A DNA stretch of 64,000 bases from assembly GCA_964651435.1 (NCBI GenBank), contig CAZYVU010000003.1:51269-115268 (forward strand). The letters are read 5' to 3'. This stretch comes from an uncultured Pseudomonadota bacterium. GTDB lineage: Bacteria; Desulfobacterota; Syntrophorhabdia; Syntrophorhabdales; CAYQXL01. Position numbers and translations under genes: made by a program. The first letter of the stretch is position 1. Every line of letters begins with the position of its first letter. Under the pieces are notes generated by a model, which was given only the letters and a program-made list of their open reading frames with translations, had not been told where the DNA came from and did no database searches. Positions 4,731-40,781 of the stretch are shown here, one piece after another.

Positions 4731-5406
4731 TGCCGTGCTGGAGACGAAGGGGCTCGTCAAGGCCTTCCGGAAGGACAGCGTGGAAATCCGCGTCCTGAAG
4801 GGCATCGACCTGGCCGTCAATGGCGGCGACTTCATTACCATCATGGGCCCGTCGGGCGCCGGCAAGAGCACGCTGCTCTACCTGCTGGGCACCCTCGATA
4901 CGCCCACGGAGGGTGACATCCTTTACCGCGGAAAGAGCATCCGGGCCTTCACCCGCGACGAGGAGAACCGCTTCCGGAACGAGCACGTCGGCTTTGTCTT
5001 CCAGTTCTACCACCTGCTTCACGATTTCAACGTCATCGAGAACATCACCTTCCCGCTCCTCATCCGGGGCGTCAAACCGGCCGAGGCGACGGCGAAGGCC
5101 GAGGCCTTTCTGGAGATCATGGGCCTCGGCGGCCGCCGTACCCACAAGCCCGGAGAACTCTCCGGCGGAGAGCAGCAGCGCGTCGCCATCGCCCGGGCTT
5201 TGGTAAATGAGCCGGAGATCATCCTTGCCGATGAGCCTACGGGCAACCTGGACCGCAAGACGGGCCACGAGGTGCTGAGCTATATCCTCTCTGTTCGGGA
5301 CCGTCTCTCGGCGGCCCTCATCCTCGTCACCCACGACCCCGAGATCGGGGCGCTCGGGAGCCGTCGCCTCCACATGGTCGACGGCGAGATCTCGTCAGAA
5401 ACGTAA
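4723..5406 (+). CDS. lolD: Lipoprotein-releasing ABC transporter ATPase
   Basis: Walker [33 protein letters not shown]; overlaps the permease stop. Confidence 0.92.
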
Positions 5407-23238: not shown

Positions 23239-24462
23239 ATGAAAATCAGCATGAAACATGATCTCTGGAACGAGAACTATGACCTCGAGCTCGACCTACC
23301 CGGACGCTGGGATGTGGAGGTCCTCCATATGGGGGGGTGTCGGAAAAGGGCGCTCACGCCGGAACGATACCGGCGGGCCCTGGCGCCCCTCGGCCCGATG
23401 CTGAAGGGGGCGAGGGAGGTTTGCGTCCTCTTCGACGACCTTTCGCGGCCCACCCGGACCTCTCAGATTCTCCCGTACCTGTGGGAGGTTTGCGAGCAGA
23501 GCGGCCTGAGAGACGAACAGGTGAGGCTTATCTGCGCCCTTGGAACGCATGCGCCCCATGACAACGCGGCCTTTCGAAAGAAGGTGGGGGCCGAAACGCT
23601 GGAGCGGTTCCCGGTTTACAATCACAATCCCTACGAAAACTGCGATTTCCTGGGCAAGACGGCCCTCGGCACCCCCATTATGGTCAACAGGGAGTATCTC
23701 GCCTGTGATGTCCGGATCGCCATTGGGTCCTTTATACCCCACTCCTTCTGCGGTTTTGGCGGCGGCTACAAGATCATTATGCCCGCCGTCAGCCATATCG
23801 ACGCCATAACCTACCATCACGGTACGCTCCTGAAGCGGTACTGGGATCAGGCCTACGTCATGGGGAAGTCTGAAGGCAACCCTCTCCTCGACGATTTGAT
23901 CGAATACGGTAACATGGTGGGGCTTAATGCGAAGATCGATGTGCTCGTCAACGAAGAGGCCGAACACGTGGACATCTTTGCCGGCAGGCCCGATGAGCTT
24001 TACGCATATTATAGGGAACGGGCCCTAAGGCATTACGCCACGGCGTCCCGGGGCTTGGCCGACGTGGTCTTCGTCAACGCCTACGCCAAGGCAAACGAGG
24101 CAGTGATCGGCCTCTCCCTGGCTGAACAACTGGTCAAGGAAGAGGGGGGCTCGATCGTTGTCCTGTGCAACATACCGGGCGGTCAGGTGGTCCACTACCT
24201 GTTGGGCCGTTTCGGCAAGGAAACGTGGGGACGTCTCGCCTTCGGGCCCCGGGAGAATGCGAAGCGGGTGAAAAGAATCTTTCTCTACTCGGGCTGGAGG
24301 GACCGCGCCAACGAATGGTGGTTCGGCGGAAGCGACGCCGTCGTTTGTTCGGGAGACCTAAAGGCTATTGTCGGGGCTATCGACGCCGAGTACGGGGCGG
24401 CACCGGTGCGCGCTTTTGTGATCCCCGACGGGACCGTTCAAATGCTGTCACGGCCGCAATAG
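23239..24462 (+). CDS. LarA-family (lactate racemase-like, nickel-pincer nucleotide dependent) protein
   Basis: DDLSRP, LGTH, VYNHNP, PHSFCGFGGGYK, AITYHH match LarA active-site motifs. Confidence 0.85.
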   Translation: MKISMKHDLWNENYDLELDLPGRWDVEVLHMGGCRKRALTPERYRRALAPLGPMLKGAREVCVLFDDLSRPTRTSQILPYLWEVCEQSGLRDEQVRLICALGTHAPHDNAAFRKKVGAETLERFPVYNHNPYENCDFLGKTALGTPIMVNREYLACDVRIAIGSFIPHSFCGFGGGYKIIMPAVSHIDAITYHHGTLLKRYWDQAYVMGKSEGNPLLDDLIEYGNMVGLNAKIDVLVNEEAEHVDIFAGRPDELYAYYRERALRHYATASRGLADVVFVNAYAKANEAVIGLSLAEQLVKEEGGSIVVLCNIPGGQVVHYLLGRFGKETWGRLAFGPRENAKRVKRIFLYSGWRDRANEWWFGGSDAVVCSGDLKAIVGAIDAEYGAAPVRAFVIPDGTVQMLSRPQ

Positions 24463-25945
24463 TGCAGATGAAGGCCAGGCAGACGAGAATGACAAAATAA
24501 TCGCCGAAGCGGACGTAAAACGTCTGCCCCTGCTTGACGCCGAACCTGCCCAAGAGAACGGCGTCCACAAAAATGTCCGTTCGGTTCGTTATCTCCCCTT
24601 TGGAATTGATCACAGCCGAGACACCCGTATTGGCTGCCCGGACGACGTAGCGGTCCGTCTCGATGGCCCGAAAGACATAGGCGGCCAGGTGCTGGTACGG
24701 TGCCGAGGTTGTGCCGAACCAGGCGTCGTTGGTAATGTTGACGAGAAAGCCTGCCCCGCTCCTCACCGTTTCGTTCGTTTCGGCAGGAAACATGCCTTCG
24801 TAGCAGATAAGGATTCCGGCGGGGCCCAGGCTCGTCGGCACCGGTCCGTGGGAGGCGCCCCGCAGGAAACCGCTGCCGGCAACGCTCATGCTTTCCAGAA
24901 AAGGGATGTAGCTGCTTAAGGGTGTGAATTCCCCAAAGGGCACCAGATGAACCTTGTTGTACTGACCAGCGACGACACCTGTTTTGGCGGTCACAAAGGC
25001 CGAGTTGTAGGCGCCCCCGTCCTTTCCTTTCGACACGGCCCCGAACATGATATCTGCCCCCGTCCTTGCGGCGAGGTCCGCCATGGCCCGCCCCACCGGT
25101 CCGTCGCCGTCGAATATGAAGGGCAGTGCCGTCTCAGGCCAGACGACAAGGTCTGCCCCCTTGCCCTTTGTTTCCGTGGCAGCTACGTACTTTTCCAAAG
25201 ACCGGGACATTGCCTCGGCCGTCCATTTGAGGTTCTGGGGTACGTTGCCCTGTACAAGGGCGACCCTGTGGTCCGGGGTTTCAGGCCGCGCCATTACCGT
25301 AAAGCCATAGAGCAGAGAGCCGATCATAAGAAGGCCCACGGAGGCAACGTAGGCCCAATGGATCCGTTTCCTCGAAAGGAGGTGGTAGAGGACGGTGTTT
25401 ACGGCGACGATGAGAAAGGAGATAAAATAGCTACCCGTAAAGGAGACTATCTGGATAAAGGGAAGAAAGGCGTGCTGCGAATGGGCGAGGAGGCTCCAGG
25501 GAAAGCCCGTCAGCAGGAAACCGCGCAGATACTCGAGGATGATCCATGCCATGGGCGCCGTCACATAGAGCGGTATTCCATGCCTGCGTTCGACAAAGCG
25601 CAGGAGAAAGGCAAAGACCCCTGTGTAGCAGGACAGATAGAGGGCCAGAAGGAGCAGGATAAGGAGGCTCAGGGGAAGGGGGATGCCTCCGTACCGGTTC
25701 ATCGCCACGGTGACCCAGTAGATGAGGCCCAAGTATGATGCAAGGCCTGCAAGAAAACCCCTCAGGAAGGCCGCGCGGGGCGTGAGGCCTTCAACGGCGA
25801 AGAAGAGGGGAACCAGGGCCGCGAAGGCGAGAAAGGACATGGAAAAGGGCGGTTGGCTGACGACAAGAAGAAGCCCCGAGAGGAGGGGAAGGCCTATCGT
25901 AAACGGTAAACGGTGAACGGTAAATGGTGAGTTACGGCTCATCAA
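24377..25945 (-). CDS. lnt: Apolipoprotein N-acyltransferase
   Basis: Catalytic triad motifs WPETA, YNKVHLVPFGE, ICYEG; TNDAWFG, RAANTGVS; start TTG 25945 or ATG 25942 after AAGGAG. Confidence 0.95.
   Translation of the reverse strand: MMSRNSPFTVHRLPFTIGLPLLSGLLLVVSQPPFSMSFLAFAALVPLFFAVEGLTPRAAFLRGFLAGLASYLGLIYWVTVAMNRYGGIPLPLSLLILLLLALYLSCYTGVFAFLLRFVERRHGIPLYVTAPMAWIILEYLRGFLLTGFPWSLLAHSQHAFLPFIQIVSFTGSYFISFLIVAVNTVLYHLLSRKRIHWAYVASVGLLMIGSLLYGFTVMARPETPDHRVALVQGNVPQNLKWTAEAMSRSLEKYVAATETKGKGADLVVWPETALPFIFDGDGPVGRAMADLAARTGADIMFGAVSKGKDGGAYNSAFVTAKTGVVAGQYNKVHLVPFGEFTPLSSYIPFLESMSVAGSGFLRGASHGPVPTSLGPAGILICYEGMFPAETNETVRSGAGFLVNITNDAWFGTTSAPYQHLAAYVFRAIETDRYVVRAANTGVSAVINSKGEITNRTDIFVDAVLLGRFGVKQGQTFYVRFGDYFVILVCLAFICTIAAVTAFERSRRGSQKRAPVPPRTRRR
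25900..25927 (+). repeat. Tandem heptamer array (TRAAYGG x4) within the lnt 5' end
   Basis: taaacgg taaacgg tgaacgg taaatgg. Confidence 0.88.
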
Positions 25946-26130
25946 GCGTCAGCACTCCTTTCTCCGTTTTGCTCGAAGAACGGCCTTCGGCCTTGACGAG
26001 CGTTCTTGCGAACTTGACGAGGGGCCACTCCGTGGCCTTGAGGCCTTATGCGTACAGCGAAGCGCTCATCAAGTCCCGCCGATGCGGGACGTTCCTCAAA
26101 CGCAGTGCTCATCAAGCGTCAGCGCTCCTT
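25937..26130. repeat. 24-bp direct repeats (1 mismatch) flanking a hairpin-rich insert; possible MITE/REP insertion
   Basis: gctcatcaagcgtcagc(a/g)ctcctt at 25937-25960 and 26107-26130; internal hairpins ggccac/gtggcc and gtcccgc/gcgggac. Confidence 0.75.
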
Positions 26131-26579
26131 ATCTCAACCAGTTTTCCGTAGATCGGGTGTGCCCTGACCTTGGCCATCAGTTTCTGCTCGCGGTAGCGCA
26201 TCCTCCTGGCCTCCGCGGCCCCTGCTTCGTGGTCGAAGCCGGCTATATGGACCATGCCGTGAACGATGAGCGCCAGGAGCCTGTCGTAAAAGGGGAATCC
26301 GGAGTCTTCCGCCTCCTCGGCAGCCCGTTCAACGGATATGATGATATCCCCCAGGACTTCGCCCTCGGCACAGGCGCCGTAGCCGAAGGAGATGACATTC
26401 GTCGGCCTGTTCCTGTCAAAGTATTGTTTGTTTATTTGGGTGATGCGCCTGTTGCTGACCAGCAGCAGGCTAAGGTCTCCGGCGCCCAGCGAGAGGCTGC
26501 CGATGACATCACCGACGATGTGGGCGAGGGCGGTTGCATCAACCCTGCGCTGTTTTTGGGAGTTTTTTATCAGTACCAT
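26112..26579 (-). CDS. ybeY: rRNA maturation endoribonuclease YbeY
   Basis: NKQYFDRNRPTNVISF, LGDIIIS, HGMVHIAGFDH (H-x3-H-x5-H). Confidence 0.93.
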   Translation of the reverse strand: MVLIKNSQKQRRVDATALAHIVGDVIGSLSLGAGDLSLLLVSNRRITQINKQYFDRNRPTNVISFGYGACAEGEVLGDIIISVERAAEEAEDSGFPFYDRLLALIVHGMVHIAGFDHEAGAAEARRMRYREQKLMAKVRAHPIYGKLVEIRSADA

Positions 26580-28191
26580 TGGGGGCCGCCGTTATTTTTT
26601 CCGGGTATTCGATGCGATGGTGGAAGATGCCCAGAAGTATGTTGGTAAAACTCTTCTCTATGCCATAGAGGTCTTTCATCGTCAGCTCGCACTCATCGAG
26701 CTGTCCGTCCACGAAGATGCGCTCTATGATCTGCTGCACGTGCGACTCGATACGTTTCGGCGTGGGATCCTCAAGGGTCCGCGATGCCGCTTCCACGGCG
26801 TCGGCCAGCATGACGATACCCGCTTCCTTGGTCTGTGGCTTAGGGCCCGCGTACCGGAAGTCCTTTTCCTCGATAATATGCAGGGTAGGGTCTTCCCGCT
26901 CTTTGGCCCTGCTGTAAAAGTAACTGACGAGGCTCGTGCCGTGATGCTGGCGGACGATATCCTCCAGTTTGGTGCCGAGCCGGAAGCGTGCGGCAAGCTC
27001 CGTGCCCTCCTTGACGTGGGAGTGAATGATGAGGGCGCTCATGCTCGGTGAAAGGGCCTTGTGGGCATCCTCGAACCCCTTCCGGTTTTCGATAAAATAG
27101 TGGGGCATCTTCAGCTTGCCCACATCGTGGTAGTACGCTGCCACCCTTGCCAGCAGAGGGTTTGCGCCTATCCGCTCCGCTGCCGCCTTGGACAGGTTTC
27201 CCACCACGATGCTGTGGTGGTAGGTCCCCGGCGCATTGATCATCATTTCTTCGAGGAGCGGGTGCTCGAGATCGGCAAGTTCGAGAAGCCGTATATCCGT
27301 CGTGTAGTCAAAAAGATACTCGACGACGGGCAATAACCCCATGGCGATGAAGCTGCTCAGGATTCCAGCGATGAGGACGAAAGAAAGCCTCAGGGGAATG
27401 CCGGACAGGGAATCACCGGTGAAGACGTTGAGCAGAAAGGTGACGAGGCACATGATGAGTGAGGTGAGGAGGCCCGCCCTGAGAATCATGTTGCGGCGTT
27501 CGCATTTCCCGGAGAAGTATGCTGCGCAAATGTTCCCCAGGAAAAAGTAGAGTACCATAGAGATGGTGTTTTCGAGAACAAATGAGACGGACAGGGCGAA
27601 GAGAACGACGAGAATGATGGCCGCCTCGGAAAAAAGAACGATCCTAAGAACCATGCCGAAAAAGAAGAGTGGAACGATATACAGGATATTTCCAGCGTAC
27701 TGAGGGGCGAACTGCTCGAAGACCGTTGTAGAGAGCCGCAAAAGCAGAACGGAAAAGACCGAAAGAGATGTGACGAAGAGGAGGTCCTTCTGGGAGAGAG
27801 AAAACTTCTTGATGTTCCGGTTCGCAAACTCGATGAGGATGGTTGTGGCGATGAAGAGGAGGAAGACGAGGGAGAGGAACTTTGTGATGGGCAGAAAATG
27901 CTGGCCCAACAGCCCCTTAAGTGCCGAGAGCCTCCGAAGGTGTTCCGCATTGATCCGTTCGCCTTCGCGGACGATTACCTCGCCGCGCTTGATTGTTATA
28001 TCGGCCTCCGGCGAGTACACATCCTCCGTAGCCCTCACGGTGGAACGGACCACTTCCCCCAGGCCATATTCGTCAAACCAGAATGGATTCTGGATGGAAA
28101 TGATAAGAGAGACGACAAGGGAGAAGAGAAAAAATACGAGAAGCCTCTTAAGATCGGGGTACGAGGGAGGTTTATCTTTTCCGTTCTGCAT
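26539..28191 (-). CDS. 7TM-HDIG phosphohydrolase (PgpH/YqfF-like) with a very short ectodomain
   Basis: APGTYHHS, YYHDVGK, HVKEG, QHHGT, MLADAVEAASR; conserved phoH-HD-ybeY order; start ATG 28191. Confidence 0.9.
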   Translation of the reverse strand: MQNGKDKPPSYPDLKRLLVFFLFSLVVSLIISIQNPFWFDEYGLGEVVRSTVRATEDVYSPEADITIKRGEVIVREGERINAEHLRRLSALKGLLGQHFLPITKFLSLVFLLFIATTILIEFANRNIKKFSLSQKDLLFVTSLSVFSVLLLRLSTTVFEQFAPQYAGNILYIVPLFFFGMVLRIVLFSEAAIILVVLFALSVSFVLENTISMVLYFFLGNICAAYFSGKCERRNMILRAGLLTSLIMCLVTFLLNVFTGDSLSGIPLRLSFVLIAGILSSFIAMGLLPVVEYLFDYTTDIRLLELADLEHPLLEEMMINAPGTYHHSIVVGNLSKAAAERIGANPLLARVAAYYHDVGKLKMPHYFIENRKGFEDAHKALSPSMSALIIHSHVKEGTELAARFRLGTKLEDIVRQHHGTSLVSYFYSRAKEREDPTLHIIEEKDFRYAGPKPQTKEAGIVMLADAVEAASRTLEDPTPKRIESHVQQIIERIFVDGQLDECELTMKDLYGIEKSFTNILLGIFHHRIEYPEKITAAPNGTDKKLPKTAQG

Positions 28192-29173
28192 CGGCGGGTT
28201 CCCGCTGAGGTTTTTCCTTGGACTCGTATGCCCGTATGATCTTTTGAACGAGAGGATGCCTGACCACATCCTTCTCGGAAAAATAGACGAATTGGATGCC
28301 CTTGATGCCCTTAAGAATGGTCTGTATCTCTACGAGACCGCTTGCCTTCTTGTCGGGTAAATCGATCTGTGTGATGTCTCCCGTAATGACCGTTTTCGAC
28401 GAAAACCCGAGCCGCGTGAGAAACATCTTCATCTGTTCGGAGGCCGTGTTCTGGGCCTCGTCGAGAATGACAAAGGCGTCGTTCAGCGTCCGCCCCCTCA
28501 TGAAGGCCAGAGGGGCGATCTCGATCACATTTCTCTCGATGAGGCGGGTGGCCCGTTCGATGTCGAGCATGTCGTAGAGGGCATCGTAGAGCGGCCTGAG
28601 GTAGGGGTTCACCTTTTCGTACATCGTGCCCGGCAGATAGCCCAGCTTTTCTCCCGCCTCGATGGCCGGCCTCGCCAGTATAATACGGGAAACCTCTTTC
28701 CGGTAGTATGCCGAAAGTGCCATGGCCATGGCCAAATAGGTCTTACCTGTGCCGGCCGGGCCCACCCCGATGACCATATCGTATTTACCGATGGCCTCGA
28801 CGTATCGGGTCTGGTTTCGCCCCTTCGGCACGATTACCTTTCGGGAAGGGAATATCTGGATCTGATGGCCGCCCGTTGCGCCTTCAGTGCCCTCGGAGTG
28901 GGCGAGAAAGCGTACCGCATGGTCGATGTCGCTCGGGTTAATGGAAAAACCCTTCATCACCATGCCCTTGAGCTCGTCGATGACCTTTCCGGTGCTCTCC
29001 AGGTCTTTCTTGCCGCCGACGACGGTCAGGTGATTTCCCCTGACGCTTGCCCTTATGTTGAAGTACTTTTTGAGATGTTTGATGTTTTCTTCGCGGGGCC
29101 CGAATATGTTGCGGGCCACGTTGATATCATCAAAGGAGAGCCTTAAAAGGCTCTCTTCGGTCTGTTCGGCCAA
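28172..29173 (-). CDS. phoH: PhoH-family ATPase
   Basis: GPAGTGKTYLA, RPAIEAGEKLGYLPG, LAFMRGRTL, DEAQN, VVRHPLV. Confidence 0.95.
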   Translation of the reverse strand: MAEQTEESLLRLSFDDINVARNIFGPREENIKHLKKYFNIRASVRGNHLTVVGGKKDLESTGKVIDELKGMVMKGFSINPSDIDHAVRFLAHSEGTEGATGGHQIQIFPSRKVIVPKGRNQTRYVEAIGKYDMVIGVGPAGTGKTYLAMAMALSAYYRKEVSRIILARPAIEAGEKLGYLPGTMYEKVNPYLRPLYDALYDMLDIERATRLIERNVIEIAPLAFMRGRTLNDAFVILDEAQNTASEQMKMFLTRLGFSSKTVITGDITQIDLPDKKASGLVEIQTILKGIKGIQFVYFSEKDVVRHPLVQKIIRAYESKEKPQREPADAERKR

Positions 29174-29259: not shown

Positions 29260-30315
29260 TCACTTCCATATATCGGTCTGTGGTTGCGGGAGCTGGTGCG
29301 ACATGATCTGCTGGATATACCTGTTAAACCCGTCGCTACCCGCCTTCTCCAGCTTTTCTACCTCCGGGCGCAGGCGGTTCATGACCTTTTCGTCCTTGAC
29401 GACGCTCGCAGGGTAGTTCATATACGACGCCCTCCTCAGGAGGGAGTAGGCTTGCCGCTCCACCTTCGTCAGGGCAAGGTACGTATCCAGCTCTTCCAGC
29501 ATCTGATCCTTCTTCTCGTCCAGATATCCGTCGACATACATGAGAAGGTTGAGGCTGAAGTCGGCCTGAGAGAAGTAGCTGTGCATGGCGTCGAGGTTCT
29601 CGACGAGCAACCTGATCTCGGCGACGATCTCGTCATCCGTCATTGGAATGAAGGTTCCGTCTTCGACCATCTTCACCATCGGTGACATGGGGTGCATGGC
29701 AAAGGTCCTGACGCGAATGAAGTCAGGTTGTATCAGGTTAAGAAGCCGCGCCGTCTCGACGGCATGTTCTTCGCTGAGGCCCTTGCCGCCCAGGCCGGGC
29801 ATGATGTATTCGGACAGTTGAATCCCGGCCTCAACAACCCTCTTGCCGCCTTCGACGATATCCTCCGGCGTAATGCCTTTTCGTATCATTTTCAAAACTG
29901 TGGCCGAGCCGCTCTCCATCCCCACATGGATTCTGTTCAGCCCCTCCTCTTTCAACTGCTTGAGCTCCTCGACGGTCTTTCGCTTCAACGTCGTCGAGCG
30001 TGCGTAGCTTGTAATCCGTTCGATGTGGGGGAAATTTTGCCTCAGATAGGCAAGAATCTGCAGGAGCTGATCCGTCGGAACCGTCAGGCTGTCGGCATCC
30101 TGAAGGAACACTGTTTTGACCATCCGTTCGTAGCCCTTATACTCCGAGACCATGGCGTCTATATCCTTCTTGACCTCATCCACGCTCCGTCTCGAAAACT
30201 TAGTCCCTTTGTAGGCGGGACAAAATAAGCATTGGTTCCAAGGGCAGTTCCGCGTCACCCTTACGAGAAGGCTCTGGGCTTCGCTGGGCGGCCGTATGAC
30301 TCCCTGTTCGTACAT
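29260..30315 (-). CDS. Radical SAM protein, function unknown
   Basis: RPPSEAQSLL N-terminus, CPWNQCLFC, GMESGS; AAGGAG RBS before ATG 30315. Confidence 0.88.
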   Translation of the reverse strand: MYEQGVIRPPSEAQSLLVRVTRNCPWNQCLFCPAYKGTKFSRRSVDEVKKDIDAMVSEYKGYERMVKTVFLQDADSLTVPTDQLLQILAYLRQNFPHIERITSYARSTTLKRKTVEELKQLKEEGLNRIHVGMESGSATVLKMIRKGITPEDIVEGGKRVVEAGIQLSEYIMPGLGGKGLSEEHAVETARLLNLIQPDFIRVRTFAMHPMSPMVKMVEDGTFIPMTDDEIVAEIRLLVENLDAMHSYFSQADFSLNLLMYVDGYLDEKKDQMLEELDTYLALTKVERQAYSLLRRASYMNYPASVVKDEKVMNRLRPEVEKLEKAGSDGFNRYIQQIMSHQLPQPQTDIWK

Positions 30316-30444
30316 TATATTCTCCTTTCTCCGGCCCGCTTTCGGGGTCACCCTTAATATAGGCACTGAATCGCAAGACCGCAAGGCGGCGAGGCCCAAA
30401 AGGAGGCGTTGTCAAGAGGGAGACTTTCGAGTAAACTATGAGCC

Positions 30445-31689
30445 ATGAGCAAGATACTGATTATTGACGACGAAAGAGACATTCTGGATAGCCTGTCGTC
30501 GGTCCTGGAGGACGAAGGCTTTACGGTGGTGAAGGCGGCTAACGGTGTCGAGGGCCTGTCCGTGTTTGCGAGGGAGCAGCCCGACCTGGTGCTCCTCGAC
30601 GTGTGGATGCCTGAGATGGACGGCCTGGAGGTGTTGAGCCTCATCAAGAAAGAGGCCGGTCATGCGGTGGTCATTGTCATTTCCGGCCACGGAACCATCT
30701 CCACCGCTGTAGAGGCCGTCAAGATGGGCGCCTATGACTTTCTGGAGAAACCATTGCACGTCGACAAGGTGCTCGAGGTGATCAACCGCGGGCTCGCAAG
30801 GGACGTGCGGTCCCCGGAGCCCGTCGATGACTTCAAGATTGAGGCGGCAGGCGGTCCCCAGCTTTTCCGGCAGCGAACGATCCGGAAGAGCACCGTCGTG
30901 TATGGTATGGGACTCCACTCGGGGACGAAGACGGGCATGATACTGCTTCCCATGCCCGAGAATACGGGGATTGTCTTCGAACACGTGCCCGACGGGGAGC
31001 GCATCCCGGCCTACGTGGATTATGTGTACTCTGTGGGATACGCCTCATCTGTGAAAGGCAAGAACTGTGTAGTGAGGACGATCGAGCATCTTCTGGCGGC
31101 ACTCCACATGTACGGTATCACGAACCTTCTTGTGAAGGTTAGCGAAGAGGTGCCCATCTTTGACGGGTCGGCCGCTGAGATGTGCGGAAAGATCGAGGAG
31201 GCCGGCCTGACGGACCAGTCCTCAGGCATAGAGCCGGTAAGGATCGACCGCACAGTGGCGCTTCCCGGCCTTTCCGACGGACGCCATCTGTCCATCGAGC
31301 CCTGCGACAGGTTCGAGGTCGACTATACGCTCGATCACGCCAAGCCGATCGGCTTCCAGAACTACCACTTTCGGGGTGATGCCGCGGATTTTGTCCGCGA
31401 GATAGCACCTGCAAGGACCTTCGGCTTCATCAAGGACTTTGAGAGGCTTTCAAGCATGGGGCTCGCCTCGGGGGGGCGGATCAACAACGTCATTATCCTG
31501 AGCGACGAAGAGGTGGTCAATACGAAGCTCCGGTTTGCCGATGAGTTTGTGCGGCACAAGATCCTTGACGTGGTAGGCGATTTCTATCTGCTCAACAGGC
31601 CTGTGCTGGGCAAGGTTGTGGCCAGGCAGACAGGTCACCTCGAAAACATCGGGCTGATTCGGGAGCTGAAGCGGCTCTACCTCAACTGA
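30445..31689 (+). CDS. lpxC: Response-regulator receiver fused to UDP-3-O-acyl-GlcNAc deacetylase LpxC
   Basis: REC: IDDE, VLLDVWMP, SGHG, DFLEKP; LpxC: QRTI..GMGLHSG, TIEHLLAAL, PIFDGSA, APARTFGF, RHKILD, TGH. Confidence 0.92.
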   Translation: MSKILIIDDERDILDSLSSVLEDEGFTVVKAANGVEGLSVFAREQPDLVLLDVWMPEMDGLEVLSLIKKEAGHAVVIVISGHGTISTAVEAVKMGAYDFLEKPLHVDKVLEVINRGLARDVRSPEPVDDFKIEAAGGPQLFRQRTIRKSTVVYGMGLHSGTKTGMILLPMPENTGIVFEHVPDGERIPAYVDYVYSVGYASSVKGKNCVVRTIEHLLAALHMYGITNLLVKVSEEVPIFDGSAAEMCGKIEEAGLTDQSSGIEPVRIDRTVALPGLSDGRHLSIEPCDRFEVDYTLDHAKPIGFQNYHFRGDAADFVREIAPARTFGFIKDFERLSSMGLASGGRINNVIILSDEEVVNTKLRFADEFVRHKILDVVGDFYLLNRPVLGKVVARQTGHLENIGLIRELKRLYLN

Positions 31690-32791: not shown

Positions 32792-34126
32792 CTATTTTGT
32801 AAAAAGGCCTTCGTAAGCCGCCACACCTGCCTCATAGCCCCTTTGGTTCTTTGCCCAATCTTGATGGCAGCCGTTGCAGGAGTTGGCCAGTGCGGAGCCG
32901 GGGTCTTTCTTAAATAGCGCGAGGCTTTCCGACGGCTTAATGATCCTGAAGTCGTGCGAATGGATATCCCCTGCTTCGGCGGACGAGGCTGTCCTTACCA
33001 TGTGGCAGCCTGAGCACTTTCCCGTACCCCTTGTCTCGGGCGCATAGTTATGCTTTGTGTGGGCACGGATTGCCGCGGGGCTCGCAAACCTCTTGTCTTT
33101 GCCGTGGCAGGACAGACAGAGGTTGTTGTTGTGATCGGCCCTGACGAGCTGGTTCTCCCCGGGCCCGCCATGGGCTGCATGGCAGTCCCAGCAGGCGACC
33201 TTTGCCGCGTAGTGTTTGCTTTTCAGGAGGTCATTCCACTGTTGGTGATGTTGCCGTGAATGTGCCTGCGGATCTCCCCAGACCCCCGGTTTAAATCGGT
33301 AGAAATCGGCCAGGTTGTCTCCCGGCTTGAAGGGCTTGTTTTCTTTATCATTCCAGGGAAACTCGAAGGTTCCGGCGGGAACGCTTACCCCCCGGTTGTG
33401 ACACTGACCGCAGACTTCGATTGCCCGTTCATATGCGATCTTCCTGGGATTCACAATCTTCCCCTTCGACTTGGGCGCTTTCACGTGCTCCGAACCGGGA
33501 CCGTGGCAGCGTTCACAACCCGTATTCAGCTCCACGTAAACCGATTCATAACCACCGTTAATCTTCTTAAGCTGTAAGCCCGTGTTGTGGCACCCCGCGC
33601 AGCTCATTTCAAAGGACTTGTTGGCGGCGATGGTCTTCAGGCTTCCATCGTCGTTGTACCAGTTCTGCAGATTGTAGGGTACCCAGCGGGACGTCGCCTG
33701 GTTCCACTGGATGGGGAGGATAAAGTGATTGTTTCCTATCCTTGCCTGGTACCGCTGCTTCCACCCCCACCCTCCGTAAGTCCGCACAATATCGTAGGTC
33801 ATTTCTTTGGACGGGTCTCTTGCATCAACAAGTGTGGCACGATAGGCGCCGCCGGGACCTTTCGACAGCTTGACCATCACCTCAGGGATGCTGCCGGCCT
33901 TGAGCTTCACCGTTCCCCCCCAATCGACCACAACGGTGTCGTTGGTAGGGCTTAAGACCTGCTGGGACTTGTTGTGCAGCGTATCCCTCCAATTATCGTG
34001 GATTGCCTTGTGACATTTCACGCACTGCTCGGAACCGACGACCGTCTGGGCGAGCGCAGCAACCGGCAGAAGCATCGCTGTTATACAGCAGAGGACGATT
34101 TTTGGAATAGCCACCCTTGCAGGCAT
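32792..34126 (-). CDS. Periplasmic octaheme c-type cytochrome
   Basis: Signal peptide; eight CxxCH: CVKCH, CAGCH, CERCH, CGQCH, CWDCH, CLSCH, CSGCH, CNGCH. Confidence 0.9.
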   Translation of the reverse strand: MPARVAIPKIVLCCITAMLLPVAALAQTVVGSEQCVKCHKAIHDNWRDTLHNKSQQVLSPTNDTVVVDWGGTVKLKAGSIPEVMVKLSKGPGGAYRATLVDARDPSKEMTYDIVRTYGGWGWKQRYQARIGNNHFILPIQWNQATSRWVPYNLQNWYNDDGSLKTIAANKSFEMSCAGCHNTGLQLKKINGGYESVYVELNTGCERCHGPGSEHVKAPKSKGKIVNPRKIAYERAIEVCGQCHNRGVSVPAGTFEFPWNDKENKPFKPGDNLADFYRFKPGVWGDPQAHSRQHHQQWNDLLKSKHYAAKVACWDCHAAHGGPGENQLVRADHNNNLCLSCHGKDKRFASPAAIRAHTKHNYAPETRGTGKCSGCHMVRTASSAEAGDIHSHDFRIIKPSESLALFKKDPGSALANSCNGCHQDWAKNQRGYEAGVAAYEGLFTK

Positions 34127-34173: not shown

Positions 34174-34467
34174 CTACTTTCTCTTCTGTTTCATTGGAGC
34201 GCCACAGCAGATGAGGTCGCATGTCTCAACGCAACCGCATGCCGTGTCGACGCTTACAACGATACCGCAGACTTCGCAGGCGAGTCTGGCCCCTTCCTTC
34301 AACTGCTTGCTTTTCGCTCCCGCTGCCTTGGCAGGCGCCTTCTTTGGGGCTGTCGCCTTCGCCGCCTTGGGCTCGGCCGCCTTCTTTGTTGCCGGCTTCG
34401 CAGATGTTGCCTTCTTTGCAGCCGGCTTCGCAGGTGCCGGTTTTGTTGCAGCAGTCTTCGTTGCCAT
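34174..34467 (-). CDS. Lys/Ala/Pro-rich (histone H1-like) protein with C-terminal Cys-rich desulforedoxin-like domain
   Basis: PAK/AKK repeats, then CEVCG...CGC...C...CCGAPM; AGGGGG RBS; strong upstream promoter. Confidence 0.8.
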   Translation of the reverse strand: MATKTAATKPAPAKPAAKKATSAKPATKKAAEPKAAKATAPKKAPAKAAGAKSKQLKEGARLACEVCGIVVSVDTACGCVETCDLICCGAPMKQKRK

Positions 34468-34509
34468 CAATGAACCCCCTTATTAGAGTATTTTTGAGCG
34501 GTTGTTTCT

Positions 34510-34665: not shown

Positions 34666-37503
34666 TTAAAGGCCGCAGAGGCAGTTAAAGGCGCAGCCGG
34701 GGCAGGCGCGGTCATCGAAGGGGGCAAAGGAAATGGCGGGGTTTCTGAGGTGCGTGAGAACGGTGGCCGCCATGGCCATAAAGTGTTTTTGAACCCCTTC
34801 CTTCTCGTCTCTCTCGATCCCTTTGAAAAGGTGCTCCTCTTTGTTTGTCTTGAGGAGGGCCAGCACGGCGTCCATGTCGGCAACAGGAACGGACGCCCGC
34901 TCCGCGTAGACCTGCACGTAGAGGGGAAGCTGCAGGCTCGGCACGCGGCAATGGATTTCTTCCATGGAGGCCGGGTCTACTTGGCGAAGCGCCTTTGAAT
35001 ACTGGGGTCCGCCGCCGGTCTTGTAGTCAATGATCGTGTGCATTCCCGTGGCGGGAACATAATCAACCCGGTCGATGCGGCCGCGAAACCGGACCTCCGG
35101 GCCAAGGGCCGGGATGGAGCCCTCCACGGGCTCTTCGAGGTGGGCTATGGTGACGGGACCATCCAGCTCATCGATATGTTTCTGGAGAAATGCTTTCAGC
35201 TTGTGCTCGGCTACTCTCCTGAAGAGATAATAGTCTCCCGTCACGATCCTGCCGTCGAAGTGCCTGTTAAGGGCTTCGTCAAGGTTCCTCAGGAGCGCCG
35301 GCCGGTCATCCTTGGCAAGCGGTCTGTTCAGGTATCCGGCAAAGGTATCGAAGAGTATGGCATGGATAATCGTCCCGCGGTCGCTGTCCTCGATGTCGCT
35401 GGAAAGAAGCTGCTCCTCTTCGAAGCGCAGCATGTGGCGATGGTAAAAAAATACAGGGCAGCGCACGTAGTCGTCTATGCTGGACGGAGAGAAGGTCTTT
35501 CCCGCCAGCGCACGGATGATGGCGGGGGTCTTGGGAAATGAAGGCGGCTCCTTTTTTGTCCTCAGGCGTATCTTCTGGGTGGACCTTTCCACCGTCACCA
35601 CATCCAGGCTGCCGAGGGACCGTTCTTTTTGCCAAATGAGCATTTCGATATAGCGGCTTCTGGGCTTGTCTTCGGCCTCCACGTAAATGAGATGGGCCTC
35701 TCTCGCCCCCGCGACGAGTCGCTGAAAGTAGTAGCGGAAGACCTCTTCATGTTCCTCGGCGGCAGGCAGGCCCAGGCTCTCGTAGACGCCCACGGGGACC
35801 AGCGGGTCGATGTGCTTTGCCGCCGGTATGACCCCCTCATTGATGTCGAGAATAAGCACGGTCTCGAAGCGGAGGCTTCTTGTTTCAAGGAGGCCCAGTA
35901 TTTCGAGGGTCTCCAGAGGAGTCGTGTCGAAGGGAACGCTGAGATGCTTCAGGTGCCTCCGAAGGAAATCCCTAAGCGCCCTTCCGTGCTCCTCATCGTT
36001 GTCGTGAAACCGTTCTGTAGCGATGCGGGATCGCTTGATGTCCTCCAGGGCTTCGATGAGGCGGGTAAAAATCTCGCCGGAGAGTACGTATGATTTGAGC
36101 TCCGTGTTAAGCATCAGGAACTCGAACGCCTCCTGCAGCCGAAGCGACAGTTCGGCCAAGTCGGACGGTCGCTCAAAGGCGCGGAAGAAGACGTGGTGAA
36201 TCTTCTTGAGGCCTTCGACGACAGCACCGTCCCTCTCGCACAGTTCGCGGCCCCTGGGCGTTCGCTTGAGCCAGGAGACCGCTGCCTCTTCCACATCGTC
36301 GACACCAAGGAAGGCTTTTCCGTAAAGGGGGCTCGACGCGTCCCGGGTCAGCCACTCCTTCACTGCTGACAGGAGGCGCCATAGCAGAGGGGTGAGCCGA
36401 GCATTCTTCACAAACGGATGAAGGATGATGCCAAGATAGTCTGGGGCGGCATAGACGGACCTCTCGGCTGTGCCGTCCTGGGCGCGGAGGAGGGCGTCCA
36501 TGAGGCTGAACAGTGAGGTGCGTGAGAGTGGATATGCGATGGAAACGTTATAGTTGTCGTGCCATCGGTCGACGGCAAAGGTGAGAAGGGGAAAGAGCGT
36601 TGCGGGCAGGGGAAGAACGACGGCGGTTCTGTTCGGCGGCGCCGTGCCCAGAATCGATGCTGCGTGAAGCGCCTCGGCATGGGTGTCGAAGCCCGAGTAG
36701 ATCCTGACCATCGTATCGCCCTTGGCCATGTTCCTGTCCAGGGGTTCCACGGGAGCACCAAGATGGCGGACAAGCTCGTTAAGGACGGGCCATTCTCCCG
36801 GATTGCCTTCCAAAATGATCTCCGCCTGTCCCACCTCCCAGAGCCTCCTGACGATCCGGCGTTCCACCTCCGTCGTGGCGAAGAGGCCCGCAAAGATAAC
36901 GGCATCGAAGTCCGGCAGCGACGGTGCGTCCAGAGCCTCCAGAGCCTTCAGGTACTTGTACCCCCGCGTGAGGCAGCGTTCCGTTTCGAGAAGCGCATGA
37001 AAGGCGCTGCGAACTGCTACGATCTGGCGCAGCAACAGGTTGACGCTCTCGGGAACATCGTATCCGATAGCCGCATTCTCTTCCACCGAAAGAAGCCTTT
37101 CCTGCGGCACGTTTTCCACGTCCACGGACTCGATGAAAGAGAGGAGGTGGCTACCCCAGGGGAAGAAGTCGCCAAAATTGTCCTTTGCAAAGAGCGACCC
37201 ACTGAGGCGTAGTGATCTGACGGCCTTGAAAAGCATCCAGACGGCATCGGGCTGATCGACATCTGAAAGGCCGGGCCAGCGGCTCGCTACAAGATGATCT
37301 ATGAATCCATCGACGGAGAAAGACGCCGGCGGGAAAAACGGCGCCTTGCGCGTTGCGGCCAGGGCTTCCTTGAGGTAAAGCCCCGGACGTTTTCCGGGAA
37401 AGATTATAGCCGTACGGTTCAGCGGAACCTCGAGGCCTTCAAGAAAGTCCCTGACGGCCTCGATGAAGTCGCACCCCATGGGAACGATACGGACAGGCTT
37501 CAT
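34666..37503 (-). CDS. addB: AddB-like PD-(D/E)xK nuclease subunit
   Basis: Degenerate helicase scaffold, SPSSIDDYVRCP, GRIDRVD, IIDYKTG, terminal CPGCAFNCLC; coupled to addA. Confidence 0.85.
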   Translation of the reverse strand: MKPVRIVPMGCDFIEAVRDFLEGLEVPLNRTAIIFPGKRPGLYLKEALAATRKAPFFPPASFSVDGFIDHLVASRWPGLSDVDQPDAVWMLFKAVRSLRLSGSLFAKDNFGDFFPWGSHLLSFIESVDVENVPQERLLSVEENAAIGYDVPESVNLLLRQIVAVRSAFHALLETERCLTRGYKYLKALEALDAPSLPDFDAVIFAGLFATTEVERRIVRRLWEVGQAEIILEGNPGEWPVLNELVRHLGAPVEPLDRNMAKGDTMVRIYSGFDTHAEALHAASILGTAPPNRTAVVLPLPATLFPLLTFAVDRWHDNYNVSIAYPLSRTSLFSLMDALLRAQDGTAERSVYAAPDYLGIILHPFVKNARLTPLLWRLLSAVKEWLTRDASSPLYGKAFLGVDDVEEAAVSWLKRTPRGRELCERDGAVVEGLKKIHHVFFRAFERPSDLAELSLRLQEAFEFLMLNTELKSYVLSGEIFTRLIEALEDIKRSRIATERFHDNDEEHGRALRDFLRRHLKHLSVPFDTTPLETLEILGLLETRSLRFETVLILDINEGVIPAAKHIDPLVPVGVYESLGLPAAEEHEEVFRYYFQRLVAGAREAHLIYVEAEDKPRSRYIEMLIWQKERSLGSLDVVTVERSTQKIRLRTKKEPPSFPKTPAIIRALAGKTFSPSSIDDYVRCPVFFYHRHMLRFEEEQLLSSDIEDSDRGTIIHAILFDTFAGYLNRPLAKDDRPALLRNLDEALNRHFDGRIVTGDYYLFRRVAEHKLKAFLQKHIDELDGPVTIAHLEEPVEGSIPALGPEVRFRGRIDRVDYVPATGMHTIIDYKTGGGPQYSKALRQVDPASMEEIHCRVPSLQLPLYVQVYAERASVPVADMDAVLALLKTNKEEHLFKGIERDEKEGVQKHFMAMAATVLTHLRNPAISFAPFDDRACPGCAFNCLCGL

Positions 37504-40500
37504 AGGCTGAGCACCCTGCGTTCATCGACGTAAAGAAGAAACTTCCGTATCTCTTTGCCGGGATAGATGGCGGAAAGGAGCTGTCCGTAGCGCATGATCT
37601 GCGATTTGTGCTCAGCGCTTTCCGTTTCGCCCGTTTTGAAATCGATGACATCGATATGGTCTGCCGACACGATGACCCGATCGATCTTGTGCGTCTGTCC
37701 CGCGCCGTCGACCACCTCCAGTTCCGTGAGCACCGTCTCCCCTGCCCCCAATCGAAAAAAGGCTTCGAACCGGGGGTCCGAGAGGCACCCTTTCAGGAGC
37801 GACGCGACCTCTTCCGGGTCCGCCGCCCCCCGATGGCGGGCAAGCCCGGAGGCGACAGCGTCCCTCACCGTTTTACCTCCGTCTTCGCCCAGCGAGGCTA
37901 CGAGTGAGAGTATGTAGTGTATCAGATCGCCCTTTCTGCGAGCGGCCAGGCGGGCCCGCGAAAGGCCCGATCCGTCGGCGAGCTTGGACCGCATTCTATC
38001 TATCCAGTGAACGCCGTTGCCGGGAAGCCACGCCGCTTCGGGTGCACGGACCGGCGGCCGCTCCGGAGAATCGTGAGCCGAAGAGGGGGCTGCGACGTGC
38101 GGCGACAGGGGGGGCTCGATGCCGAAGGTGCAGGCCCTATCGGTCGTGCGATGTGCGGCCTCGCTGAGGGCAAAGCAATGATCGATGAGAAAGTTCCTTT
38201 GGCGTTTCGAGTCGGTGAGGAGGACATACAGTTCCCCCTTGGCCCTTGTAAGGGCCACATAGATACCGTTCAGCTCGTCGAGAAGGTATTCCGCCTCCCG
38301 CTGAGATGCGATCGCATCCAGTGCCGGCGAGCATGCCCGTAACGCTGCATTGATGTACAACAGGTGTGCCGATTGGCCCTCCCTGACGACGTACCGATTC
38401 TTGTCGGCGGCGTCTGATTGGGCGAAGTTCGTAAGCTTCAGAAAAGGAAGGATGACAAGGGGAAATTGAAGCCCCTTGGCCTTATGGATTGTGAGGACCT
38501 TGACGGCATCCGTTCCTTCAACGGCCTTCAGCAGAAACCTCTCCTCGCCTTCGCCGGTGCCCCGGTCATCGGGGTTTCCGTGCTCCCTCCAGAATCGCAC
38601 AAAGGTGCTGAGGCTGCCCGTGCTGCTGTCATCCGTTTGTTGCAGCATCTCGCAGAGGTGGAGCAGATAGGGCCGGTCATCGGGGAAGTTTTCCAGCACC
38701 CGGCAGCGCTTCAAGATGGTGAGGAGGAGCTCGTAGAGGGGGAAAAAGCCGGCATTTCGAACAAAGTAGGCCAGATGCTTTTCCCACAATGCAGGAAAGT
38801 CCCTTTGCAGAAAGCCGGCGAGGGGTATCCTCTCTTCCTCGAGACGCACCGTCTCGATCCAGCCGTGAAGGCATCCGCAAGGAAGCCCGGTAAGCTCTGT
38901 GAATATTTCTCCCTCAAGAAACGTGGCGAGCGATAGATCGTCGTCTATGGAATCGAGGAAGGAAAGAAGGGCCAGAACCTCCTTAACCAACCGATTGTTG
39001 CGCACGTCGACGGTCAGGTCGGATTCGACGGCTATGCCCATGGTGAGCAGGAGGTTGGCGACAAACTCCATCTCATCCCTCCGTCGGAGCAGGATTGCAA
39101 TGTCGGCGTCACGGATGGTCCCCCGGGAGCGTATCGCCCCGACAAGTTCCCTCATCCGCTCTCCCACGACACGGAACCGCTCATCCTTGGAGAATTGGTC
39201 TTGGACATCGTCATCGTCTCCGGGCACGACGACCCTCTCTACGGAAACATAGCCCAGGCCCGCGTTGGCACGTGTAAAGTCCTGGGCCGTATCATCATAG
39301 ACCGCCAGTATCCGACCCACCCCCTCGTGGTGGTCGCCAAGGATCCGCTGCAAGGTCTGCCGGAGGTTGTCACGATGAAAGAGGAGGTTGTTGAAGGCAA
39401 CGATATGCTCACCGCTGCGGTAGTTCGTGGTCAGGGCAATTTCCAGAGGGCTGAAGGAGCGGTAGCGGCTGAGGAGGTGGTCCACAAGGCCCGTATCGGC
39501 GCCGCGCCACCGGTAGATCGACTGTTTCTTGTCTCCTACGACAAAGAGCGTGCCCCCCCTGCTCAGCGCCTCGTCGGCAAGGACGGCTATGTTGTGCCAT
39601 TGCAGGCCGTTCGTGTCCTGAAACTCGTCGATGAGAAAATGGTGGTACCGGTCGGCAAGGCTGTAATAGACCTCCGGCACAAAGGAGGATCGGCCGACGA
39701 CGGCGCGAAGGAGCCGGTTGAGCTCCTCGATGAGGAGAAGACGCCTCCGGTACGTCAGCTCCTTTGTCAGGAAACCCTTGAAGACCCCGTAAATGTCCAG
39801 ATAGGACGAGAACTTGGAAGCCGCAAGCAGTTCTCCGTGGGACCCCAGGGCTTCTCGAAACTCTCTCCACCGGTCTTCCAGGGCCTCTTCGGGAAGCGCA
39901 CTGGCCTTGGTCACGGAAGCGGTGACGCTTGGCCTTTGGAGAAAGGCGCTGACCTTGAGCTGCGGGCCCGACGGGGGGGCGAACTGCTCAAGGGCCTTGA
40001 CGAACCCGGCATGGAGCTTCAGCCCCGGCGACGAGGATATGTGATCCCTGAGAGAGGCGACGAGGGACTCCAGGCGGCGTCCCGACTCGGTCATGCGCTT
40101 ACGCGTCGGCGCCGGGTTAAAGGCGGCGCTCTCCTTCGATTCCTCCTGCCACAAGAGGTCCATCATGGACCTCAGGAAGGCCTTTGGCACCCAACTGGCC
40201 CTCTCGCCCTCGAGCTCCAGGTAATTCGTCACGAAACGATCAAACTGCCGCCGGACGCGCTCGTCGTCAAGGATGTGCCGGAGTGTTTCGTTGAGCACGA
40301 TGTCGAAGTAGTCCGACGATCGCGTTGAAATCTCGAAATCAGGGGGCAGTTGAAGCTTGAAGGCCGAGGCCCTCAGGGTCAGATGAACGAAACTGTCTAT
40401 GGTGCTTACCTTGAAATCGTAGAAATGGCGCAACAGGTCATCGAATACCCTTGCCAGCCGTTCGGCCGCCGCTGCCTGAAGACGCTCCGTCCCCGTTGAG

Positions 40501-40781
40501 GGGTGGACCCCTTCGCCTTCGGTGAGCAGAAGCGTTAGGGGATTTTCCGCGCTATTGTCAAAAGAGATGCCCAGGATGACCCGTTTTATCCATTCGATAA
40601 TGCGCGAACGCATCTCTGCCGCGGCCTTGTTCGTAAAGGTAATGGCAAGGATGTTGCCGGGCCCGCACGGCTTCATCTTTTGGCCGAGCATGTCGGCAAG
40701 AAGTATGGAGAGGTAGCGACGGGTGAGGCTGAATGTCTTGCCTGACCCGGCCGAGGACTTGAGGGCTATGAACTGACTCAT
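37500..40781 (-). CDS. addA: AddA-like UvrD helicase-nuclease
   Basis: SAGSGKT, ILAITFTNKAAAEM, IDEFQDT, VGDKKQSIYRWRG, TIHKAKGL, YVALTRA, IDRV..IDFKTG. Confidence 0.92.
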   Translation of the reverse strand: MSQFIALKSSAGSGKTFSLTRRYLSILLADMLGQKMKPCGPGNILAITFTNKAAAEMRSRIIEWIKRVILGISFDNSAENPLTLLLTEGEGVHPSTGTERLQAAAAERLARVFDDLLRHFYDFKVSTIDSFVHLTLRASAFKLQLPPDFEISTRSSDYFDIVLNETLRHILDDERVRRQFDRFVTNYLELEGERASWVPKAFLRSMMDLLWQEESKESAAFNPAPTRKRMTESGRRLESLVASLRDHISSSPGLKLHAGFVKALEQFAPPSGPQLKVSAFLQRPSVTASVTKASALPEEALEDRWREFREALGSHGELLAASKFSSYLDIYGVFKGFLTKELTYRRRLLLIEELNRLLRAVVGRSSFVPEVYYSLADRYHHFLIDEFQDTNGLQWHNIAVLADEALSRGGTLFVVGDKKQSIYRWRGADTGLVDHLLSRYRSFSPLEIALTTNYRSGEHIVAFNNLLFHRDNLRQTLQRILGDHHEGVGRILAVYDDTAQDFTRANAGLGYVSVERVVVPGDDDDVQDQFSKDERFRVVGERMRELVGAIRSRGTIRDADIAILLRRRDEMEFVANLLLTMGIAVESDLTVDVRNNRLVKEVLALLSFLDSIDDDLSLATFLEGEIFTELTGLPCGCLHGWIETVRLEEERIPLAGFLQRDFPALWEKHLAYFVRNAGFFPLYELLLTILKRCRVLENFPDDRPYLLHLCEMLQQTDDSSTGSLSTFVRFWREHGNPDDRGTGEGEERFLLKAVEGTDAVKVLTIHKAKGLQFPLVILPFLKLTNFAQSDAADKNRYVVREGQSAHLLYINAALRACSPALDAIASQREAEYLLDELNGIYVALTRAKGELYVLLTDSKRQRNFLIDHCFALSEAAHRTTDRACTFGIEPPLSPHVAAPSSAHDSPERPPVRAPEAAWLPGNGVHWIDRMRSKLADGSGLSRARLAARRKGDLIHYILSLVASLGEDGGKTVRDAVASGLARHRGAADPEEVASLLKGCLSDPRFEAFFRLGAGETVLTELEVVDGAGQTHKIDRVIVSADHIDVIDFKTGETESAEHKSQIMRYGQLLSAIYPGKEIRKFLLYVDERRVLSL

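Follow-up and report, generated by a model that had tools for sequence, protein, structure and literature searches.

In a 64,000-nucleotide (nt) stretch of DNA from an uncultured bacterium of the class Syntrophorhabdia (contig CAZYVU010000003.1, positions 51,269 to 115,268; hereafter, the window), a single open reading frame (ORF) joins a response regulator receiver domain (REC) to the lipid A deacetylase LpxC. LpxC catalyzes the committed step in the synthesis of lipid A and is the control point of lipopolysaccharide (LPS) synthesis as well as an antibiotic target; to our knowledge, its regulation outside the enterobacteria is largely unknown. The fusion, labeled merely LpxC or NtrX in JGI and other databases, is present in at least three bacterial lineages, Syntrophorhabdia, Binatia and Nitrospinota. 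REC-LpxC is probably a genuine response regulator with LpxC as its output, and the most likely founding event of the family is the fusion of ntrX to a downstream lpxC gene. Judging from its domain organization, it would be a response regulator whose enzymatic output, like the mode of LpxC control that it predicts, has not been described before.

A complete receiver joined to a complete LpxC

The domain boundaries of the REC-LpxC gene are given in Table 1. The Pfam model of the receiver (Response_reg, PF00072) matches amino acids (aa) 4-113 of the window protein with 106.7 bits against a cut-off of 30.2, whereas the LpxC model (PF03331) matches aa 143-408 with 262.9 bits (E 4e-78), spanning model positions 1-266 of 268; with the NCBIfam lpxC equivalog TIGR00325, the protein scores 233.6 bits, above the cut-off of 187.25. 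Read from the DNA, the receiver motifs are all in frame, namely, IDDE (I7, D8, D9, E10), the phospho-acceptor D52 within VLLDVWMP (codon GAC, 30598-30600), SGHG with S80, and EKP with K102 and P103; the aromatic switch residue is F99. In the LpxC part, E214 and H215 lie in TIEHLL (codons 31084-31089), T325 and F326 in ARTFGF (from the residue-by-residue alignment to Pseudomonas aeruginosa LpxC), H371, K372 and D375 in RHKILD (31555-31569), with D379 further on (H371-D379, 31555-31581), and H398 in TGH (codon 31636-31638). Of these residues, H215, H371, D375, E214, H398, T325, K372 and D379 align with the Zn-ligand and catalytic motifs of the P. aeruginosa enzyme; in the Escherichia coli numbering, the Zn ligands are His79, His238 and Asp242, and the catalytic residues are Glu78, His265, Thr191, Lys239 and Asp246. 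The LpxC part opens at the natural N-terminus of the enzyme (QRTI, compare MIKQRTL in E. coli), so that the receiver is joined to a complete enzyme via aa 117-140. By every sequence and fold measure used here, the window protein is an LpxC and, by sequence, a phospho-accepting receiver, with deacetylase activity and phosphotransfer predicted.

These results agree with an earlier sequence-only reading of the window, which had described one ORF combining a complete NtrC/NtrX-like receiver with a full LpxC and had suggested a hidden Markov model search with Response_reg and LpxC. Both domains were matched, the motifs quoted in that reading are all in frame, the linker, put at about 25 aa, measures 24 aa, and the best receiver-family match is indeed NtrX.

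The conservation of the two domains points in the same direction. In an alignment of 38 sequences that reaches down to 32% identity, D9, D52, S80, K102 and P103 do not vary at all, with D8 conserved to at least 90%; E214, H215, H371, K372, D375, D379 and H398 are invariant as well, and fused and stand-alone LpxCs alike keep the Zn and catalytic residues, including T325, at a level of at least 90%. Across Syntrophorhabdia, Binatia and divergent representatives, lineages that are just 32-50% identical overall, the phospho-acceptor, switch and catalytic residues show little or no variation. The mean identity within Syntrophorhabdia is 75.5% for the receiver and 73.8% for LpxC, and within Binatia, 71.3% and 65.7%, respectively. 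Because the receiver is conserved at least as strongly as the enzyme within each clade, it is under purifying selection, even without an adjacent kinase; D8, D9, D52, S80, F99 and K102 are all kept in Syntrophorhabdia. The identity of the linker is 27% in Syntrophorhabdia and 27-36% across both clades, and its length is constant at 24 aa in 36 of the 41 Syntrophorhabdia sequences. Five positions are conserved in fused LpxCs and rare in stand-alone ones, namely, G164, Y223, K231, C247 and 351, the last being Ile in the window protein where the fusion consensus has Leu; judging from this pattern, they are candidates for the REC-LpxC interface, nothing more.

Distribution of the fusion

A search of 5.8 billion proteins yielded at least 120 clusters, defined at 90% identity, with the REC-LpxC architecture. 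Their proteins, taken from assemblies of JGI, ENA, NCBI and Logan, measure 412-425 aa and share 67-87% identity with the window protein. In a scan of one genome per species, a contiguous full-length REC-LpxC ORF was detected in 80 species-level genomes. Syntrophorhabdia account for 45 of these loci (61-72% identity), including a closed 5.5-Mb chromosome and the isolate genome of the cultured Syntrophorhabdus aromaticivorans UI; the other 35 loci belong to Binatia and relatives (44-52% identity), several of them on closed chromosomes. Chromosomes that carry the fusion include OY762209.1 (Syntrophorhabdaceae) and OY282432.1, OZ253480.1 and OY762897.2 (Binatia). The sequence-only reading had named a frameshift or misassembly at the junction, or a fusion unique to this assembly, as outcomes that would undo it. 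Both are excluded because the same continuous ORF recurs in this many clusters from different sources and in this many genomes, isolate genome and closed chromosomes included, so that an artefact uniting two separate genes has practically no chance of being the explanation and can be considered refuted.

NtrX-like relatives and NtrY-type kinases

When 1.84 billion representative proteins were searched exhaustively with HMMER and the best 150 matches were scanned for domains, the window protein turned out to belong to a wider family. Among these best 150 matches, there are 20 REC-LpxC proteins (412-483 aa), 15 REC-AAA+-LpxC proteins (650-736 aa), two intermediates of about 500 aa with a Fis-type helix-turn-helix (HTH) domain between REC and LpxC, eight N-terminally truncated fragments or proteins with other N-terminal extensions (347-615 aa), and 57 stand-alone LpxCs (267-339 aa) with an identity of 45% or less except for two artefacts. 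The sources of the long forms are Nitrospina, Nitrospinota and ‘Deltaproteobacteria’ metagenome-assembled genomes (MAGs). By lineage, Binatia have REC-LpxC, and Nitrospinota have both REC-HTH-LpxC and a full NtrX-like REC-AAA+-HTH-LpxC. The N-terminal 444 aa of the long forms are matched end to end by the NtrX model, their best match (343 bits against the 600-bit equivalog cut-off), and some are named NtrX in the JGI annotation. NtrX lacks the GAFTGA motif, and so do the long forms, in which the stretch equivalent to this motif of the sigma-54 activators reads SSSKQGGQK. The long NtrX-like REC-AAA+-HTH-LpxC of Nitrospinota and related contigs would be a DNA-binding regulator and an enzyme in one protein.

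The window protein matches the NtrX equivalog with its REC part only (130 bits against the 600-bit cut-off), NtrX being the top-scoring receiver family. Lacking AAA+ and HTH and scoring below the cut-off, it is not a member of NtrX, but looks derived from or related to it. Given that the longer relatives are NtrX-like-LpxC proteins encoded behind an NtrY-type kinase, the window protein looks like a trimmed NtrX-LpxC fusion.

In all 35 Binatia-type loci, the gene directly upstream, on the same strand, encodes an NtrY-type kinase of ~750 aa, and no more than ~10-150 nt separate its end from the start of REC-LpxC. The domains of one such kinase (locus L047) are NtrY_N, HAMP, PAS, HisKA and HATPase_c (Pfam), and relatives are named NtrY by JGI. 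An NtrY-type kinase is located in the same place and orientation in six of six longer-form loci (L081-L083, with the 505-aa form, and L084, L089 and L090, with long forms), preceded by DUF4390 in five of the six. Because the kinase lies directly upstream, the fusion takes the place of ntrX in an operon of the ntrY-ntrX type, both in Binatia and in the longer forms. Downstream of the six longer-form fusions, LolA is encoded in five loci, MlaC in three and RseP in two, which gives these neighborhoods an envelope flavor.

In the window itself, tblastn searches with NtrY-kinase and REC queries detected no histidine kinase and no other receiver, as the sequence-only reading had stated for the kinase. 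Two divergent REC-LpxC lineages, P0174 and P0177, are likewise orphans without an adjacent kinase. In one of the 45 Syntrophorhabdia loci, from a Syntrophorhabdus MAG (L007, 8130-9299, plus strand), an unrelated protoglobin-HATPase_c kinase is encoded on the same strand as REC-LpxC and ~600 nt upstream of it.

In a neighbor-joining tree of LpxC domains, 38 of the 43 fused domains form one clade. Among the LpxCs clustering with the fused ones, those that seem to stand alone are only fragments or come from a frameshifted contig. One of these, P0164 (51% identical), was examined as a possible unfused ancestor and rejected: it is encoded on a frameshift-ridden long-read contig (L085, 6818-8879), on which the kinase upstream is broken up into HisKA and HATPase pieces and a 430-nt gap occupies the place expected for the receiver. 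P0164 is probably a frameshifted fusion, not an unfused ancestor.

Predicted structure

An AlphaFold2 model of the window protein, the structure prediction suggested in the sequence-only reading, was built with the 38-sequence alignment. The model has a mean predicted local distance difference test score (pLDDT) of 88.9 and a predicted template modeling score (pTM) of 0.88, with disorder confined to the linker. The receiver consists of five beta strands alternating with five helices (pLDDT >90), and the LpxC part (pLDDT mostly >90) adopts the two-domain beta-alpha-alpha-beta fold of LpxC; Foldseek aligns it to LpxC structures in the PDB with E 6e-31, target-normalized TM scores of 0.83-0.95 and root-mean-square deviations of 1.5-2.2 Å. 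By our own estimate, a 115-residue receiver oriented freely relative to a 275-residue LpxC domain would yield a pTM of about 0.6-0.65. The observed value therefore implies a low predicted error for the placement of the receiver on LpxC, and we read it as a compact, docked model.

Compared with the stand-alone LpxCs of E. coli, P. aeruginosa and Aquifex aeolicus, the window protein has the same fold, 32-38% identity and identical Zn and catalytic residues, but adds the N-terminal receiver and lacks a C-terminal tail of ~30 residues. The alignment with E. coli LpxC stops at residue 273 of the 305 in the chain and at residue 406 of the 414 in the query, leaving eight residues in the window protein. 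With the solved LpxCs in general, the window protein ends 6-8 residues past the last aligned position, whereas the E. coli and P. aeruginosa enzymes are ~28-32 residues longer. In E. coli, the C-terminal tail carries the FtsH degradation signal (PMC3333781 ref. 22, PMC12444477); given that a tail of this type is absent here, a different control would be needed.

A candidate phosphorylation switch and its alternatives

The most likely origin of the family is the fusion of the ntrX gene of an ntrY-ntrX operon to a downstream lpxC, after which Nitrospinota would have kept the long form, REC-AAA+-HTH-LpxC, and Binatia and Syntrophorhabdia would have trimmed it to REC-linker-LpxC. In the proposed mechanism, the unphosphorylated receiver would pack against the LpxC domain; an NtrY-type membrane kinase, presumably encoded elsewhere in the genome from which the window derives, would phosphorylate Asp52, and phosphorylation would rearrange the alpha4-beta5-alpha5 face of the receiver and alter its packing on LpxC. 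The deacetylase activity and, hence, lipid A flux would then change directly and post-translationally, by a CheB-like logic. We infer phosphotransfer, an effect on catalysis and the direction of that effect from sequence. By analogy, we lean weakly towards phosphorylation relieving inhibition; the alphaproteobacterial ntrYX data would argue for the opposite direction, with the pathway acting as a brake. The sequence-only reading, too, had proposed a candidate phosphorylation switch acting on LpxC and a kinase encoded elsewhere, and all the points of it that can be tested on sequences agree, that is, the residues, the conservation of the receiver and the adjacency of a kinase in relatives.

The receiver could instead set the amount of LpxC rather than its activity, with phosphorylation exposing or hiding a degradation signal or recruiting a protease and so replacing the FtsH/LapB route. 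Proteolysis is the main means by which LpxC is regulated in E. coli (PMC12444477), the absence of the E. coli-type tail calls for another control, and the best PDB sequence match of the receiver is P. aeruginosa RssB (3eq2, E 3e-27), the E. coli namesake of which is a proteolysis adaptor. However, this likeness is ordinary receiver similarity, with the NtrX model scoring 26 bits above the RssB model, and no protease gene is conserved beside the fusion. The high pTM also favors intramolecular docking, although docking could gate a degron too, and altogether we consider control through stability unlikely. It also seems improbable that housekeeping falls to a stand-alone lpxC elsewhere in the genome, while the fused copy adds flux under a signal or uses a variant substrate. 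The fusion gene is not located beside other lpx genes in the window, but in other bacteria, too, lpxC frequently lies apart from lpxA and lpxD, the domain scores above the NCBI equivalog cut-off for LpxC, and the substrate-binding and catalytic residues are unchanged; the stand-alone LpxCs clustering with the fused ones were accounted for above as fragments or frameshift products. The sequence-only reading had proposed looking for such a second copy, and none was found in the 64-kb window (tblastn) or within ~10 kb of the fusion, less at contig ends, in the 80 genomes, a result that holds for the neighborhoods to which the scan was restricted.

As for Syntrophorhabdia, where the kinase is gone from all 45 neighborhoods, the receiver might be a leftover of NtrX that no longer signals and serves, at most, as a structural appendage or a phosphate sink. 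A vestige would be expected to drift or to vanish, as AAA+ and HTH did, whereas this receiver is slightly more conserved than LpxC in the same clade and retains the pocket, phospho-acceptor and switch residues. We give this explanation very little credence.

Several observations weigh against our preferred interpretation, a signaling fusion of ntrX origin. An NtrY-type kinase is adjacent to the fusion in none of the 45 Syntrophorhabdia loci, and a database search with the kinase of locus L048 was uninformative for this clade, the best 120 matches all being Binatia-type, with at least 60% identity. In the neighbor-joining tree, the stem of the clade of fused LpxC domains is very short and five divergent REC-LpxC proteins are placed elsewhere, so that a single origin is not secure. 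The docking of the receiver on LpxC is a prediction from the pTM and may or may not involve the active site. Finally, the scans for a second LpxC covered the window and the surroundings of the fusion in the 80 genomes, which leaves room for another copy elsewhere in the genome. That REC-LpxC and its NtrX-LpxC relatives are the only LpxC in these bacteria is a tentative and rather doubtful proposition. If true, it would make NtrY/NtrX, at root, a sensor of outer-membrane and LPS homeostasis, and several phyla would set LPS flux via phosphorylation of the enzyme, not via proteolysis of the FtsH/LapB type.

Comparison with known systems

The physiological signal of the NtrY/NtrX system of alpha- and betaproteobacteria is still debated, with nitrogen, redox, pH and the envelope all having been considered. 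The fusion family shares with this system the receiver, for which NtrX is the best family match, as well as the REC, GAFTGA-less AAA+ and Fis-type HTH domains that are kept in relatives, and the long relatives sit behind DUF4390 and an NtrY-type kinase, as ntrX does. In contrast, the known NtrX acts only as a DNA-binding regulator, with a transcriptional and reportedly indirect effect on lpxC, whereas here LpxC is covalently attached, and the window protein is entirely devoid of AAA+ and HTH and has no adjacent ntrY gene. NtrYX has been tied to lpxC and the cell envelope in Rhodobacter sphaeroides and Caulobacter crescentus (PMC7240162, PMC12444477), and in R. sphaeroides, loss of ntrYX raised lpxC mRNA 8.8-fold and increased LPS (PMC7240162; reviewed in PMC12444477). 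As a gene-fusion clue, REC-LpxC would tie NtrY/NtrX physically to lipid A synthesis, in agreement with the unexplained rise of lpxC and LPS in the alphaproteobacterial ntrYX mutants.

In unphosphorylated CheB, the receiver blocks the active site. REC-LpxC resembles CheB in combining a receiver, a flexible linker and a monomeric hydrolase, with a compact docked state predicted here; the catalytic domains are unrelated, and that phosphorylation would relieve an inhibition is no more than an analogy. Two-component control aimed at LpxC is represented by DVU2931/DVU2934 of Desulfovibrio vulgaris, in which lpxC is the only mapped target of DVU2934 (PMC3333781), so that there is a precedent among sulfate reducers for a phosphorelay dedicated to LpxC control. 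Unlike the fusion, that control is transcriptional and relies on a separate DNA-binding regulator. Another natural LpxC fusion is LpxC-FabZ (PRK13188), in which the partner is a C-terminal metabolic enzyme; the window protein reaches 188 bits against the 465-bit cut-off of that model and has no FabZ part.

The sequence-only reading knew of no characterized example of a receiver-LpxC fusion, and our full-text literature searches found no published description of a receiver-LpxC or NtrX-LpxC fusion either, although the subscription literature may mention one. A 2025 review of lipid A regulation covers only transcriptional or proteolytic routes, and the words ‘receiver’ and ‘fusion’ are absent from it (PMC12444477). 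The covalent receiver-LpxC fusion would be the first direct two-component control of LpxC.

Gene neighborhood and other features of the window

The neighboring genes scanned in the window include neither lpx genes nor a kinase or another regulator, and Rfam, promoter and terminator scans around the REC-LpxC gene detected nothing of note. The gene upstream of the fusion varies among Syntrophorhabdia (PhoH, Sua5/YciO or DUF3786, with a P-type ATPase further away).

Table 1 The REC-LpxC gene, its domains and other features of the window
Feature	Coordinates	Strand	Remarks
Whole REC-LpxC gene	30445..31689	+	414 aa and stop codon, ATG start; ORF list, Pfam and NCBIfam matches
Receiver (REC), aa 1-116	30445..30792	+	PF00072, E 1e-30; best NCBIfam match NtrX, 130 bits
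Inter-domain linker, aa 117-140	30793..30864	+	24 aa; pLDDT 45-59
LpxC deacetylase domain, aa 141-414	30865..31686	+	PF03331 full-length; TIGR00325 above cut-off; Foldseek to solved LpxC
LolC/E-like FtsX permease, then ORF	3531..5406	+	ORF at 4723-5406
PMT_2 (ArnT-like) glycosyltransferase	9668..11530	-	620 aa
Lnt / 7TM-HD membrane phosphohydrolase / PhoH cluster	24377..29173	-	
Radical SAM gene	29260..30399	-	
Multiheme cytochrome c	32792..34126	-	444 aa
Ala/Lys/Pro-rich, Cys-tailed protein	34174..34470	-	98 aa
AddB/AddA-type helicase-nuclease pair	34666..40781	-	

The Lnt/7TM-HD/PhoH cluster resembles the ybeZ...lnt operon of E. coli. It is found upstream of REC-LpxC on the opposite strand in ~30 Syntrophorhabdia loci; as an LpxC-specific context, it was rejected, being a housekeeping cluster. 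MobB and NUDIX genes follow downstream of REC-LpxC in convergent orientation, and by this shared gene order the window organism belongs in or near Syntrophorhabdaceae. The radical SAM gene between PhoH and REC-LpxC is present, among the 45 Syntrophorhabdia loci compared, only in the window and in L014, and looks like a local insertion into an otherwise conserved gene order. Other envelope genes in the window are those for the LolC/E-like permease and the ArnT-like glycosyltransferase; a PMT_2 gene, together with kdsB, is also found near a divergent REC-LpxC (L088). Downstream of the fusion and with no apparent link to it are the multiheme cytochrome c gene and the AddB/AddA-type pair. Between these two lies the gene for a 98-aa protein that combines a histone-H1-like N-terminal half, rich in Ala, Lys and Pro, with a Cys-rich C-terminal tail (CEVCG...CGC...CDLICCG); no Pfam model matches this protein, which is conserved in seven related loci.

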